Positions 318-12,300 of a stretch of DNA of 64,000 nt are shown here, piece after piece (position 1 is the stretch's first letter; each line of letters begins with the position of its first letter). The translations under genes were made by a program, and so were the position numbers. The stretch lies in the NCBI RefSeq assembly GCF_026571515.1, contig NW_026862991.1:1-64000 (forward strand). The letters are read 5' to 3'. The DNA comes from Ruditapes philippinarum (taxonomy: Eukaryota). A model generated the notes under the pieces. The model had not been told where the DNA came from. It saw only the letters and a program-made list of their open reading frames with translations, and ran no database searches.

Positions 318-3300
318 CTATAAATAAATCAAAATCACTTTCATATACACAGTTTATGTTAACTACCAGAATATTCCATCAAGTTTAGAATAACAATATT
401 TATACCGCAAATTCAACCACTCCTGCAGAGATTACTCAGGTACTGAACAAAGTGCAAATGCTGAATGATTAAGTATTTTCTATGAATATCATTTTCGGCA
501 CATACCCGAAGGAACATGTGGCCTTTCGTATATATTTTGCAGTGTCCACGGAATCAATTGATCCCCATAACTCCCCTTTCCGTATCCGACACCTATGTAA
601 GATTCAGTAATGATTGAGTCGTCGTGAACTAACACCGATGCCTTAATGTCATTCGGATTGCTCGTTGACAGGAATGCTGGAGAAATTCTCGCAGTAGGTT
701 CTGTAGTATCGTAAGTTGTAAGCATGCATGTTACGCCTGCTCTAGTGCCAGCACTATTTTCAGCATAAACCGTGTAATACAATGGCTCTCCGGACGGATA
801 TTCATTTACCGCCTGTAATGAGAATAAAATTTATAGAATAAGGTATATGCACCATCAAATTGTTTACATAGTTTTATTCTCCGGACGGACATTCTGTAAT
901 GAAAAAAAGCAAATTCGTTGAACTGATTAATCCCGTACAAATCACTGAATTGAAACGATACCAAGCCTACACAATTAGCAAGGTCAAGCAAAAGTACACG
1001 TGTACTTTTTCAGATAAAATAAATAAAAATATTATTTTAACATTCATTTAAAGTAATGTGTTTATAAAATAAGTCAGATGCAAACAATCGAAAGCATCAT
1101 ACTTTAAATTTAAATAAAGCATTTTAATATTAGATGTAGGAAACACTGCAAAATATGTTTCTACATTAAACTGTCATGTTTTGGTAAGTGTACCTTAAAC
1201 TGACATATTAATATACACACTGTTATTTGCTTTATTAAAATGCAAGAATATAATAATTTTTATGAAATTAATATAAATTGAACACACCAATGGGTAACAT
1301 AAAAATTCAAGGTGTATTTGGTGTCTTTTGGTATTTTTATATACAAGAGTCTCTTTATATTGGACAAATCTTATAGAATGTTATTTAAAACCCATTTAAT
1401 TCTAATCTTGAATAAGAGATTCACAAGAGAATCAATGACATTTTTAAAGCAGTCAAAATATTGTTAAATTTTTAAATGGAAGGAACATACTTGGTTGACA
1501 CTCACTCGATGGTGTTTCATGATTAATATCTAAGCTCTAGCTCTTTGGGTATTTTTAAAGAAGATTTTTTTAAGTTTTTACTTTACACATATAAAAGGAA
1601 AATCAATGACCCCTGCCCCTGGCAGGGCCAATTTTAACCCAAGGGTTTTTATTTGAACAAACTTGGTAGACAACCAATAGAAGATGTTTCATACTAAACA
1701 TCTAAGCTCTAGCTCGTTGGGATTTATTTTAAGTTTTTACTATACACATATAGTTAAAAACAATGACACCCCTGGGGCGGGGTCAATTTTGACCCCAGGG
1801 CTTTTATTTGAGACACTCACTAGAAGATGTCTCATGCTTAATATCTAAACTCTAGCTATTTGGGTTTTTTAAAAGAAGATATTTTAAGTATTTCTATACA
1901 CAAAAAGGAAAAAACAATGACCCCCCCGGGGTTAAATTTTTAACTAAGGCTCTTTTTTGAACAAAATTGGGAAAAAATCTATTGAAATGTTCACAAAAAA
2001 TATTAGCTCTAGCTCTTTGGGTTCTTTGAAAGAAGATTTTTAAGTTTTTACTATAATGCATATAGGGAAAATCAATAACCCCCTGGAGCGGGGCCAATTT
2101 TGACCCCAGGGCTTTTATTTGCACAAACTTGATAGACACCTACACTATTAGAAGATGTTTCATGGTAAAAATCTTAGCTCTAGCTCTTTGGGTTCTTTAA
2201 AAGAGAATTTTTTAGGTTTTTACTATATGCTTATAGGGAAAATCAATGACCCCCCTGGGGCGGGGCCAATTTTTACCCAAGGGCTTTTATTGGAATAAAC
2301 TTGGTAGACACTCACTAGAAAATGTTTCATGCCAAATATCTAAGATTTAGCTCTTTCGGTTTTTAAAAGAAGATATTTAAAGTTTTTTTCTTTTGGTTGC
2401 CAAGTCAACCAGAGTTCTGCATGAAATTAAATTCTTTGGTGACCAACAAAGGAACATTCATGTGTAGTTTGAGTGAAATTGGCTTAGTGGTTTATGAGGA
2501 GATGTCATTTAAATTAAAAGTTTACGGACGACGGTCGGACGGACGGCGGACGAAAAACGATCAAAAAAGCTCACACTGTAAGTTCGTGACAGGTGAGCTA
2601 AAAGAATTATAAAGGTTGTTTCTGAAATACCCTTAAGATTAATGAACAGTTACGACGTGTATACGTTTCAGAAAGAACCTTTATATTAATTTACTTATTT
2701 TAGAATGACCATTGAGATTCCACGATTTCAGTCTGTAATTGTAAAGTGACTAATAGAAATTCTACATATATTCAGATCTTTCTTGTAAACTTTACAGGAA
2801 GTCAACCCGTTCTCAGATAGATTTCGTCCGAAAAAATAGAAAAATAAATAAGTTGGATTTAAAACCGAAGAGCCCTTGGTTTCAATACAATGAAAAATAG
2901 TTCTAGACTTTATAAATATTCTAGAGACTGAAAGTCATGTATAAGAAAGATTCTGCGTTCAAAGACTTGTATAATGCTATAGGCCCGTAAGTATAAAATT
3001 GTTTTTCTTATATCATTTATTGCCGTTTAACTGTGACATGTGTACATTCAATACATGCTCTCATTTCATTATGAACATTATATCATGAGTTATACAGAAA
3101 AGGAAACCTTACTGTTGCCAAGACAGTTGATGATCCACCAAGCTGACGGTTGTTTACAACGTTACTTCCGGCAGGGAATGTTCCGACGTCAAGGAAAAAC
3201 TTAACGTTACTTTTGTCGTCTGCTGCTGCTACAGATATTTCAAACGCTGGTTCGGTATAATCCCTATTCTTTATCTGGCTTATGTCACACGTAGATGTTG

Positions 3301-9300: not shown

Positions 9301-12300
9301 ACATAAAGTATTTACTCATCAGAACAACTGCAGATGTATTATAGGACATGTACATTAGATACAGCTTAACACATGATTTTGTTTATACCTGGTATTTGAT
9401 AGCATCATTAATAAATTGCTGTATATTTTCTTCCGATGTTCCTTGGCTGATTAAAATTGTCACTGCTTCTTTTATGTCCATACCAAGTCTGTCCGATGAA
9501 ATAAATATGAAACACATATATTCCTTCTGGATGAAAATAATTTGGTGTAGCTTAATGTTATCGGATAAATTACGTTGAGAAATAATGTTATTATAGGTCT
9601 ATTTTACATCAAATTCATTAGCTTTACATATTTGAAATTCCCTGTAATGAATGTAATACTCACGTAACGACATCTTGAACAGCCTGACGTCGTCGTCGTC
9701 TCTTGCGAGACGAACATTTTAATGATTGTGACATTCGAAAATTAAGTTGACAATCATTCGAATTCTGAGTGCTTGTGCATACTATCACGGTTACTGATAC
9801 ATCGTAACTTGTTGATGCAGTATTAGTTACATTCATATCAATGAAGATCGCATCAGCTATAGCCTCGTGTATAGGTCCTGTGCAAATATGATATATACAT
9901 ATTGTATCACAGTTAAAGATTAAAACAATTTGTTTCCCCCTTGAGTAAACACCCCACGTGTCATTTATATTTCAAAACAATTATAATAAGTAAACTTGTT
10001 ATATCGATAATAAAAGTAATAAGATATTAATGTTTTAGATAAAGTAAACACCTACTGCTAAGTTCAGAAACTGGTCTATTCCATTTCTTGTTTTCGAGTC
10101 CATATTGGAACTTGCTATTTTCACAATCACGATTAAATTCTAGCATTACATTTCGTTTGCCCTCACTGAAATGAAATTCCGTACAACACTGAATTCCTGA
10201 GCAATCTGGGGACCAAGCACAACTGTTCTGGAGTTCGTCTGGTAATGTATCACATGCTGGAAGAAACATTGCATACTCTTTGCTTACAAAATCTTTAAAG
10301 CGTGACTGGTCCAACTGTATAAGCTACATTAAAGGCAAATCATACCCAATACGGTTAAATTTTTACTTCTTTAAAAAAGGAGCGAACATGAATATTACAA
10401 CATTTTAATAATGGTTTAAAAGCATGTTTAATGCTTCTTACATGAAGAAAAGAGCACTTTATGTGAAATTGTTTTTCATAAATGCAAAAAGTATAAACAA
10501 GTAGTTTTTTCACTTCATTCAAAATACTAAATTACTGTAACTTAACTAATTACCAAATAGCTTCAGAACAAAACATGGATCAGGTAATTAGCCAATGAGT
10601 ATCATTTTGAACACTATGAAAATACATCAAAAATAAAAAAAATTGAATACTAAAACTGAAAGAATTTCTGGGACATAATGGGTCTTTAAAAGGGAATAAC
10701 TCGATGATTATTCCTCTTAATCGTAAATAAACACGAGATTTGGCATACTGTCATGATAACACATGCACAACGGATAGCCTATTATCAGGCTCATAAGTAA
10801 CCTGATCGATGAATTCATATTTTCATAACTATCATCTCACATTAAAACTTGTTGTTCATCAAATGACATACTCCATTTTTGAACATATGTGGATATTTTA
10901 TTAACTTGATACTACGATAACCGTTTAAATGGCAGGCATATTAGATACAATAGGCGTCAAAAACGATATAAACTTGATCTTTTTCACTCTTAATTTAACA
11001 TATTATTCATTGAATTTCATAAAAGTGATAAACGATTGGTCATGCATACCACTTGCAGTTGCGGTTATGTTTTCAGTTGTGCAGATAGGCTGCCTCCAAA
11101 AGTCATGCGTTATTCCTGTAAGATAATGTTGTAGTTTTAAATAGTGTGTAGATTGTTACAAAATTTTCGTCACAGTGACTTTAAAATGTAAAACATTTAG
11201 AACTTTATCATTTTAATTTATTTGACTAAATTATCAATCTTTAGATTTGTTTTTCTGACAACAATCATTCTAGGAATTTTGCTATTAATGCATTATACCG
11301 TATGGTTCACCAGTCGTTGCTTTGATAAAATTATGTGGCATCACACTCAAGTCTGTGTCAAAAATAGAACGTGTGAAATACAGATTTACATGTTAACTGA
11401 TACATTTTATCAAAAGAAGAATTTCTGCACAGTCATCCTTTACATGTCTAGAGACATGAAGTCAAAAAGATTCATTGAAGTATTTGAAAATGCATTTAAT
11501 TTATATGAAGAAATTAACAAGAGGGCTTTGGTAATATTTTTCAGTAGTTCTTTTTCTGTTTTATTTTTACTTTGATTTCGTAATATCCGTATGCATACGA
11601 CAAACCAAAATGAAAGAGAAACTAATTTTTCTTCAGTAGTCTAACTCTTAATAATAGGAGTGTGATATATAATGTTTACAGAGAAATGAACTTCATAATT
11701 ATGCAGGATGGAAAATAAAATGGCCAGGAATACTGAACTGATGTAGAGGCTTTTCACTAATTGACAGGGTTCTGTACATAAATTTATAAGTATATGTAAA
11801 AGTACTCATACTTTTTTTTTAAATTCTAAGCAACTAATGAATAATAAGGAAGTGTTTTCAAAGTACTAACAAAATTTTTGGTAATTTGGTAAGAAAAGGC
11901 ACCAGGAAGTGTCACAAACAGGTTTTTGCTAATATCCATTGGTTTATATCCCTTTAGAAATACTTTAGAAATAACTTACATCAAAAGTAACAACAAAGAA
12001 CAATTTTTCCCCAAAATAAAGGCCCAACTATACGCATTGTAAGTGACAATCATTCTATGGAAATTATACCAAGTCAATAATAACCTGTGCCTTATGATCA
12101 GTACTTTCAGAAAAAAGCGGTTAGAACAAGTAACATAAAGTGTATGTTAAAGGCAACAACTTAAATATGAAACTCAAGAGTGTTATGCCTATAACTTCTC
12201 AATAAGAATAACTTATAATAAGCTCAAGATAATGGTATTTATACAAAAGTGTAATTATTTTCCATGTGAAAAAGGGGAATATTTTTAGAAATACTGATCA

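Follow-up and report, generated by a model that had tools for sequence, protein, structure and literature searches.

What becomes of a protein segment that is flanked on both sides by furin-type motifs, and to what kind of protein does it belong? The question is raised by a 64,000-nucleotide stretch of the Ruditapes philippinarum genome (NW_026862991.1, positions 1 to 64,000; hereafter the window), for which a preliminary description, made from the sequence alone, had proposed a secreted polyprotein that is cut at two R-X-K/R-R sites and releases an effector domain. Our analysis of the gene model, its relatives, and their predicted folds indicates instead that the gene codes for part of a very large protein, probably membrane-anchored, that is related to vitellogenin and to the lipid-loading microsomal triglyceride transfer protein (MTP).

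Gene model and exon organization of the locus

Both motifs share one open spliced frame on the minus strand, in a chain of ten AG/GT-flanked exons. From the Q of QAV to the last R of RRGKR, this frame encodes 377 residues with a single Cys, so the originally proposed bracketing of a nearly Cys-free core of ~375 residues stands. The exons carrying the two sites are indeed missing from the ORF list, as had been pointed out, a trivial consequence of their being internal and lacking a start codon.

The core is preceded by a Cys-rich repeat array (10056..63950, minus strand, as are all features below) with ~195-aa units spread over many small exons, delineated by tblastn with the array of the relative P0172. 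The match is collinear from 59.1 to 10.1 kb and includes 14 motif matches ~195 aa apart. Further repeat exons were recovered in L029/L030, and the array runs past the window to the contig end; the contig thus ends inside the array, and both the N- and the C-terminus of this gene copy lie off it. The exon at 9664..9877 encodes the end of the last Cys-rich repeat, site 1 (9687..9707; RKRRRRR/QAV), and the start of the core, followed by a helical exon (9389..9488), a helical to low-confidence exon (8940..9096), and another helical exon (8075..8301). The last helix and, from about 6138, the first strands of the long beta-sheet are encoded at 6033..6195, and 4041..4266 contributes the middle strands of the beta-meander, which resembles the A-sheet of MTP. 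The exon at 3569..3788 supplies the last sheet strands (to about 3629) and then the DESPP strand (3613-3593) opening FN3-like domain 1, the body of which shares the next exon (3113..3316) with site 2 (3302..3313; RGKR/STS). The end of this domain and the first half of FN3-like domain 2 follow at 504..812, with the donor placed at about 504 by spliced contig comparison, and a PAN/apple domain inserted in domain 2 is encoded at 108..317 (Pfam PAN_1, E 1.2e-6; HGF N-domain, Z 11.7). Apart from this Pfam-based assignment, the gene model was combined with structure models for the second to fifth exons, with structure matches for the sixth to ninth, and with a spliced contig for the first, fourth, sixth, eighth, and ninth.

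This 21,387-nt contig of run X1, whose RNA status is a guess, confirmed the exon chain, which it covers in record coordinates 9116-11343 without a break. The comparison lists eight exons, and the gaps in the record match the lengths of three unlisted exons, leaving no hidden exon; the specific candidate of an exon behind a 26-bp tandem array is excluded by the same coordinates. The contig is ~4–5% divergent from the window and may represent an allele or a close paralog. No record typed as RNA is among the matches listed for this region, and exon depth in the raw RNA runs X21 and X23 (mostly <1 and 0, respectively) permits no firm statement on expression. The PAN exon, near the contig end, shows small indels relative to both the paralog and the contigs, which are probably assembly errors. 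A pseudogene, considered because of these indels, was set aside; the spliced contig has three gaps relative to the window at this exon, one of them common to a DNA contig.

Position and conservation of the furin-type sites

The two sites differ sharply in conservation and in position. Site 1, a predicted convertase cut at the array/core boundary, is conserved from bivalves to starfish: the alignment comprises 21 relatives, of which 20 have the strict motif, and so do all eight close copies in this genome. In contrast, site 2 is strict in 19 and dibasic in 31 of 44 relatives, with no basic pair in the other 13; among the eight close copies it is strict in four and lost in three. The site 2 loop varies from 11 to 33 residues among relatives and corresponds to residues 514–519 of the structure model (pLDDT <50). 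FN3 structural matches begin ahead of it, at residues 496–501, which places the predicted nick ~18 residues inside FN3 domain 1, preceded there by one short strand only. The D-x-[ST]-P-P motif at the start of this domain recurs in the FN3 repeats of the stalk. Accordingly, the earlier placement of both sites exactly at domain boundaries holds for site 1 and fails for site 2, and the same split applies to their conservation in orthologues.

Furin motifs are commonplace in large extracellular proteins. Within the 674-aa model we counted two motif clusters against 0.089 expected, a value reached in 2 of 1000 shuffles, for a region picked post hoc; across whole ectodomains the motif count was not enriched (P 0.08 and 0.24). 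Additional conserved convertase motifs are found elsewhere in the family; one of them, ahead of the N-terminal beta segment, is strict in 23 of 24 rows, a count that takes in isoforms. Taken with the conservation of site 1, these motifs uphold the proposal that the precursor is cut into several chains, and a multi-chain precursor, putatively processed by convertases, is well supported at the sequence level.

Domain architecture and distribution of the family

Homologs were recovered in molluscs, a nemertean, a hemichordate, starfish, and amphioxus, and the family has expanded in this bivalve to no fewer than eight close copies. Family members include Ruditapes LOC132750448, Haliotis rubra LOC124282192, and Acanthaster LOC110986022 (33–61% identity over the region), as well as Branchiostoma LOC118410558. 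Annotated relatives are labelled merely "uncharacterized" or named after single domains, and searches of the open literature brought up no account of the family.

The relatives are proteins of 3.4–6.9 thousand residues with M23, FN3, PAN, cadherin-like, and EGF domains. Their domain order, shared with a paralog in the same genome, begins with a signal peptide, an N-sheet, a helical domain, an R-X-K/R-R motif, a ~100-aa beta segment, and amphipathic helices. These are followed by an M23/LECT2-like domain, a SAP domain, zero to many Cys-rich repeats, and site 1, and then by helices, the long beta-sheet, the FN3 domain containing site 2, an FN3 domain with the inserted PAN domain, many further FN3 domains, cadherin-like and EGF domains, and often a transmembrane helix. 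A C-terminal transmembrane-type stretch is present in 26 of 52 long proteins, so the secreted nature initially suggested applies to at most part of the family.

Vitellogenin_N (PF01347) was detected above the Pfam cut-off of 24 in P0159 (51.9 bits), P0022 (48.5), P0193 (45.8), P0106 (34), and P0004 (25.7), fell under it in P0015, P0018, and P0128, and was absent in P0094. In all complete relatives examined, this vitellogenin-type lipid-transfer (LLT) module, devoid of any other long sheet, stands N-terminal to the core; the insert between the two measures 576–3101 aa and is short in P0093 and P0014, for example, with the order N-sheet, helical domain, beta segment, insert, and core sheet retained. 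The ~100-aa segment after the helical domain is conserved among relatives, and its identity as the C-sheet is a positional inference. Both it and the core sheet show an alternating hydrophobic pattern; profile–profile comparison of the two gave no internal duplication (probability 1%). In the clam genome, the paralog on contig C8107 carries the entire domain order on one strand, with the helical, M23, and first-repeat exons spliced together in one 13.9-kb contig, and on five contigs the core is preceded by the N-terminal beta exon. Contigs C15501, C1652, C190, and C14403 are candidates for the N-terminal part of the present copy. Single paralog exons gave no Vitellogenin_N match in Pfam, and the paralog contigs are not among the matches listed in genome-wide PF01347 and VWD searches. 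A separate MTP gene of this genome lies on C5252.

Comparison of the core fold with MTP and other structures

Structure models represent the relatives P0012 and P0045 rather than the window's own protein. An AlphaFold2 model of a 44%-identical relative, together with the PAN_1 match, bears out the helical-plus-beta core and FN3/PAN tail initially recognized. With the core-only model, exactly two Foldseek matches passed E<=0.001, each of them a chain of human MTP (E 6.5e-5, probability 1.00); with the long model, MTP was the sole compact high-probability match. In a second model, residues 333–496 align with MTP 722–884 (VIA Z 10.3, rmsd 8.6, 154 aligned residues, 16% identity), and the register of the MTP alignment agrees with that expected from domain order. 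The long beta-sheet is therefore predicted to adopt the A-sheet fold. In MTP, the C-terminal domain (604–884) comprises a C-sheet (621–696) and an A-sheet (767–819), and the A-sheet needs three partners: this C-sheet, the helical domain, and the barrel at the N-terminus (PMC6717300).

A search of 48,161 chains likewise recovered ApoB, lipovitellin, honeybee vitellogenin, and MTP, each through the stretch after ~residue 720 (Z 6.0–7.1). With the core alone in this second aligner, however, bacterial outer-membrane barrels and other meanders outranked every LLTP (Z 8–9), the barrel matches having 4–11% identity and covering the meander only, and MTP fell outside the top 50 for the long model. Taken by itself, the fold is thus a generic amphipathic meander, and the rmsd to MTP is high (8.6–12). 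Sequence similarity between the core and the MTP exons of this genome is marginal (best 1/300 shuffles among six comparisons; hhalign probability <2%). Family scans gave no Pfam MTP_lip_bd match, single core exons had no real Pfam match, a profile search of PDB sequences returned PAN domains only, phmmer with P0022 found nothing, and the ESM Atlas yielded only sub-threshold bacterial hypothetical clusters (0.89).

Relationship to known lipid-binding proteins

The literature consulted sorts LLTPs into four types: vitellogenin, apolipoprotein, clotting protein, and MTP. The large subunit of MTP (PDB 6I7S, 8EOJ) shares with the family an N-terminal barrel, a helical domain, and a short and then a long beta-sheet in the same order, with the core aligning to its A-sheet region. 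MTP, however, is compact, binds PDI, and extends only to about residue 894 (PMC6717300), whereas in the family the two sheets lie 576–3101 aa apart (more in this copy) and are followed by a ~3300-aa FN3/PAN/cadherin/EGF stalk and often by a transmembrane helix, and the protein bears convertase motifs. The MTP family is delimited by LPD_N only, in a compact protein without further domains; the relatives are multidomain.

Apolipophorin II/I and apolipocrustacein likewise combine an LLT module with a consensus cut, which in apoLp-II/I is made by furin at RX(R/K)R near the end of the module (PMC1783640); its putative counterpart is the strict motif after the helical domain. Unlike them, the family has several more sites and a membrane anchor, with no VWD match and, in the 14 + 5 relatives scanned, none to DUF1081, which together with LPD_N characterizes the apolipophorin/apoB class. 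Vitellogenin is a processed precursor whose chains together build one lipid cavity. It (with lipovitellin; 1LSH, 9ENR) shares Vitellogenin_N, and the core weakly matches lipovitellin 784–1073 (Z 6.5), but the family's insert consists of M23, SAP, and the Cys-rich array, followed by a stalk and transmembrane helix. Vitellogenins are defined by LPD_N, DUF1943, and VWD (PMC10799875), and neither of the latter two was matched in the same 14 + 5 relatives.

A proposed split lipid pocket and its alternatives

The reading we favor, with a probability of roughly 0.65, is that of an LLTP in which the 576–3101-aa insertion divides the lipid pocket and which is predicted to be nicked by convertases yet held together. 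The 377-aa piece would likely form the second wall of this pocket, the first lying thousands of residues upstream. In the folded precursor, the A-sheet would dock against the N-sheet, the helical domain, and the C-sheet; a furin-type cut at site 1 would then open the inserted loop, leaving the M23/Cys-rich arm hanging from the C-sheet. An optional cut at site 2, predicted inside FN3 domain 1, would leave strand A in the FN3 sandwich and keep the head on the stalk; against this, a single edge strand may be too little to retain the head once site 2 is cut. The mature protein would consist of several chains and display a lipid-binding head at the cell surface, carried by a long FN3 stalk. The most plausible role of this head would be to capture lipids or microbial lipid/glycan surfaces, the weakest step of the scheme.

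The preliminary description had the 377-aa core freed by both cuts to act as an effector in its own right; it could, for instance, be an amphipathic beta-sheet that inserts into membranes and is directed there by the Cys-rich array. The two motifs do exist, and this copy and three other close ones have both in strict form; the single Cys of the core is not conserved, leaving no evident disulfide tether, and the barrel similarities and the pore-forming MACPF chains that follow MTP in Foldseek could be read in its favor. Yet the MACPF matches have probabilities <=0.23 and an rmsd of about 40, site 2 is frequently lost and lies inside an FN3 domain, and the preceding LLT module has no other long sheet. 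Because the core resembles the MTP A-sheet, whose partner domains this family carries N-terminally, the released effector is unsupported, and we regard it as improbable. We rate just as low the proposal that the core sheet has no relation to the LLT module and is a meander of its own, structural or lipid-binding, in a protein of the extracellular matrix or of cell adhesion whose flexible linkers happen to contain maturation sites. It would accommodate the generic meander matches, the marginal sequence similarity to MTP, the chance-level motif counts of whole proteins, and the bacterial Atlas look-alikes, but it sits poorly with the MTP matches in both Foldseek searches, the expected register, and a site 1 position conserved across protostomes and deuterostomes.

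Somewhat less remote, though still doubtful, is a split LLTP in which site 2 acts as a shedding switch: strand A would dissociate, freeing the head (N-module, arm, and core) as a soluble lipoprotein, and copies without the site would stay tethered. The presence of site 2 in four and its absence in three close copies of one genome, similar variation across phyla, and the single short strand preceding the site are consistent with such a switch; however, patchy presence is equally compatible with a dispensable loop, and the length of the loop varies. A bolder version of the split pocket, which we consider unlikely but ahead of the foregoing alternatives, makes the family an ancient LLTP branch, new to the literature, that serves as a cell-surface lipid receptor. 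The two halves of its MTP-like pocket would come together from positions separated by up to several thousand residues, furin would open the M23/Cys-rich arm at site 1, and a paralog-specific site 2 would set the fate of the lipid-loaded head, either shedding as a soluble lipoprotein or retention on the FN3 stalk.

If the favored split-pocket reading is true, its membrane-anchored form would constitute a further LLTP architecture, with bearing on the evolution of MTP, apoB, and vitellogenin, and the lipid pocket would tolerate very large insertions between its C- and A-sheets. The predicted cut sites define exact N-termini, beginning QAVQ and STST, that can be searched for in proteomes. For site 2 only, the insulin receptor offers an analogy: it is cut within its insert domain into an alpha and a beta chain (PMC7039211). 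There, too, a furin motif lies in a disordered insert near fibronectin domains and both chains stay in the mature receptor; overall homology is absent, and the present site is optional, with no evident disulfide across it.

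Gene model and the two convertase-type sites

The window, with the composition of AT-rich animal DNA (GC 32%), covers bases 1-64000 of a contig 78,210 bases long in the 1.41-Gb genome and is traversed by a minus-strand gene with both ends off the contig. Splicing of ten exons (10256 to about 504) yields a single open frame, which contains the two furin-type sites of the preliminary description: site 1 (RKRRRRR/QAV, 9707-9687, minus strand), between the Cys-rich repeat array and the core, and site 2 (RGKR/STS, 3313-3302, minus strand), near the start of the FN3/PAN stalk. The intervening 377 residues of the spliced model include a single Cys, confirming the nearly Cys-free core proposed earlier. 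A 21,387-nt contig from sequencing run X1 (which the tool guessed to be RNA; ~4-5% divergent from the window) covers these exons, and its unbroken record coordinates confirm the exon chain and exclude a hidden exon. As previously reported, a start-codon ORF scan lists neither site's exon, which is expected because both are internal.

Site 1 matches the strict R-X-K/R-R consensus in 20/21 aligning relatives, including two starfish proteins, and in all 8 close copies from the same genome; short-array members are variable here and do not align. It lies after the final Cys of the final repeat. Among 44 relatives, site 2 is strict in 19, dibasic in 31, and absent in 13, while the close copies retain the strict form in 4 cases, have lost it in 3, and are unreadable in 1. 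Its loop of 11-33 residues is flanked by a Cys and a D-x-[ST]-P-P motif that also opens the FN3-like repeats downstream. In the model of relative P0012, most alignments to FN3 tandem structures begin at residues 496-501, ahead of a low-confidence basic loop (514-519). A cut at site 2 is thus predicted to fall within the first FN3 domain, not between two domains. The earlier placement of both sites at domain boundaries, and the conservation looked for in them, hold for site 1 and are not confirmed for site 2. Two motif clusters occur in 674 residues against a shuffle mean of 0.089, with 2/1000 shuffles reaching two, in a region picked for having them; whole-protein counts of the cleavage motif show no enrichment. 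Convertase processing of the precursor is likely.

Fold of the core

Two structure models were used, one made with AlphaFold2 for P0012 (residues 1-818, mean pLDDT 71.8) and a second for the core alone of relative P0045 (pLDDT 78.4). The P0012 model bears out the described helical-then-beta core, with helices at 144-325 followed by a long antiparallel beta-meander at 331-491. In Foldseek, microsomal triglyceride transfer protein (MTP) was the sole compact high-probability match to the long model (rank 9, 164 columns, probability 1.00), and VIA placed residues 333-496 on MTP 722-884 (Z 10.3, rmsd 8.6, 154 residues); the P0045 core returned two matches at E<=0.001, each MTP. [quoted passage not shown] Against an MTP-like assignment count the wide structural search with the core alone, in which bacterial barrels reached Z 8-9 and thus outranked apoB, lipovitellin, bee vitellogenin, and MTP, all at Z 6.0-7.1, the absence of MTP from the top 50 for the long model, and the marginal sequence similarity of the core to exons of the clam's MTP. 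Assigning the core sheet as a probable MTP-like A-sheet draws on its fold, its register, and the domain order in combination. A conventional MTP gene lies separately in the genome (L050-L052, C5252:184590-186080).

Family and domain order

Homologue searches recovered 347 representative proteins at E<=0.001 and 32 long relatives, nearly all named 'uncharacterized' or 'hypothetical', with named hosts spanning bivalves, gastropods, a nemertean, a hemichordate, starfish, and amphioxus. A search of the clam genome with the central core exon gave 8 close (67-100%) and 2 distant matches, and the paralog on contig C6126 matches an NCBI protein of Ruditapes philippinarum. The relatives' Pfam domains are Vitellogenin_N, Peptidase_M23, SAP, PAN, fn3, cadherin-like/Big_9, and EGF or Sushi, and the marker of the lipid-transfer superfamily (LLTP) is present among them. 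The C8107 paralog preserves the entire domain order on a single strand over ~170 kb, and in a 13.9-kb contig its exons for the helical part, M23, and the first Cys repeat are spliced to each other. Of 52 proteins at least 3000 aa long, 26 have a transmembrane-type hydrophobic stretch (Kyte-Doolittle 19-residue mean >=2.2) close to the C-terminus; the remainder include many partial models.

P0093 and P0201 are divergent, complete members through which the family may extend beyond bilaterians; in P0093 the insert is at its shortest (576 aa) and no Cys-rich repeat is present. A single contig (C13302:293635-450382) carries three distant matches to the N-terminal beta exon, suggestive of a tandem cluster of the short-array subfamily.

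Proposed architecture and alternatives

We favor, at a probability of roughly 0.65, a precursor with an MTP-like head in which a huge, convertase-nicked loop connects the C-sheet to the A-sheet, the chains being kept together. This loop would comprise amphipathic helices, M23, SAP, and the Cys-rich array. The precursor would be nicked past the helical domain and at site 1, with a further, optional nick at site 2. The cut chains would remain associated, so that cleavage at site 1 would free one end of an arm rather than release the core. Mounted on a cell-surface FN3 stalk, the head might bind lipid or microbial surfaces, as its domain content suggests. Both M23 zinc motifs are intact in only 4/22 relatives by a simple pattern scan; hence, a binding role for this domain appears as likely as catalysis. 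In the C8107 paralog, the M23/LECT2-like domain (L035:2426-4356) keeps the HxH motif and seemingly lacks the first His.

Shedding of the entire head at site 2, with copies lacking the site remaining tethered, would suit the patchy occurrence of the motif, for which a dispensable loop would account just as well, and seems unlikely. The originally proposed release of the core as an effector draws on the two sites that bracket it; with site 2 optional and predicted within FN3 domain 1, that reading is unsupported, and we regard it as improbable. Equally doubtful is an unrelated core sheet with incidental sites, which the bacterial-barrel scores would favor and which the MTP-only matches of the P0045 core and the near-invariant site 1 speak against.

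The proposed nicked MTP-like precursor can be likened, as a processed LLTP, to apoLp-II/I, which is cut by furin (PMC1783640), and, for site 2 alone, to the insulin receptor, cut within its insert domain (PMC7039211). The family falls outside the domain definitions of vitellogenin, apolipoprotein, and MTP as each is drawn in PMC10799875. No publication describing it was found in the open literature searched. The value of the finding would lie in an LLTP architecture that is both split and membrane-anchored.

Additional features of the window

The Cys-rich array (10056-63950) has repeat units of roughly 195 aa; Pfam gave no match to the repeat in the paralog exons scanned, and the P0012 model does not resolve it (pLDDT below 50). 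Within 108-200, the PAN exon has 1 inserted and 3 missing bases relative to the C8107 paralog, which put a stop codon into the frame of the window; in this region the spliced X1 contig has 3 gaps against the window, 1 of them common to a DNA contig. These indels are probably an assembly error near the contig end. One intron holds a GC-rich 257-codon frame (27981-28751) that presumably resembles a Harbinger-type transposon protein and had no match in a Pfam scan, and a LINE-like remnant (zf-RVT, E 2.8e-5, below cut-off) occupies 47814-48931 of the plus strand, also in an intron. A 26-bp unit repeated nine times in tandem (4270-4503) adjoins the splice acceptor at 4266, which lacks a pyrimidine tract and is nevertheless used in the spliced X1 contig.
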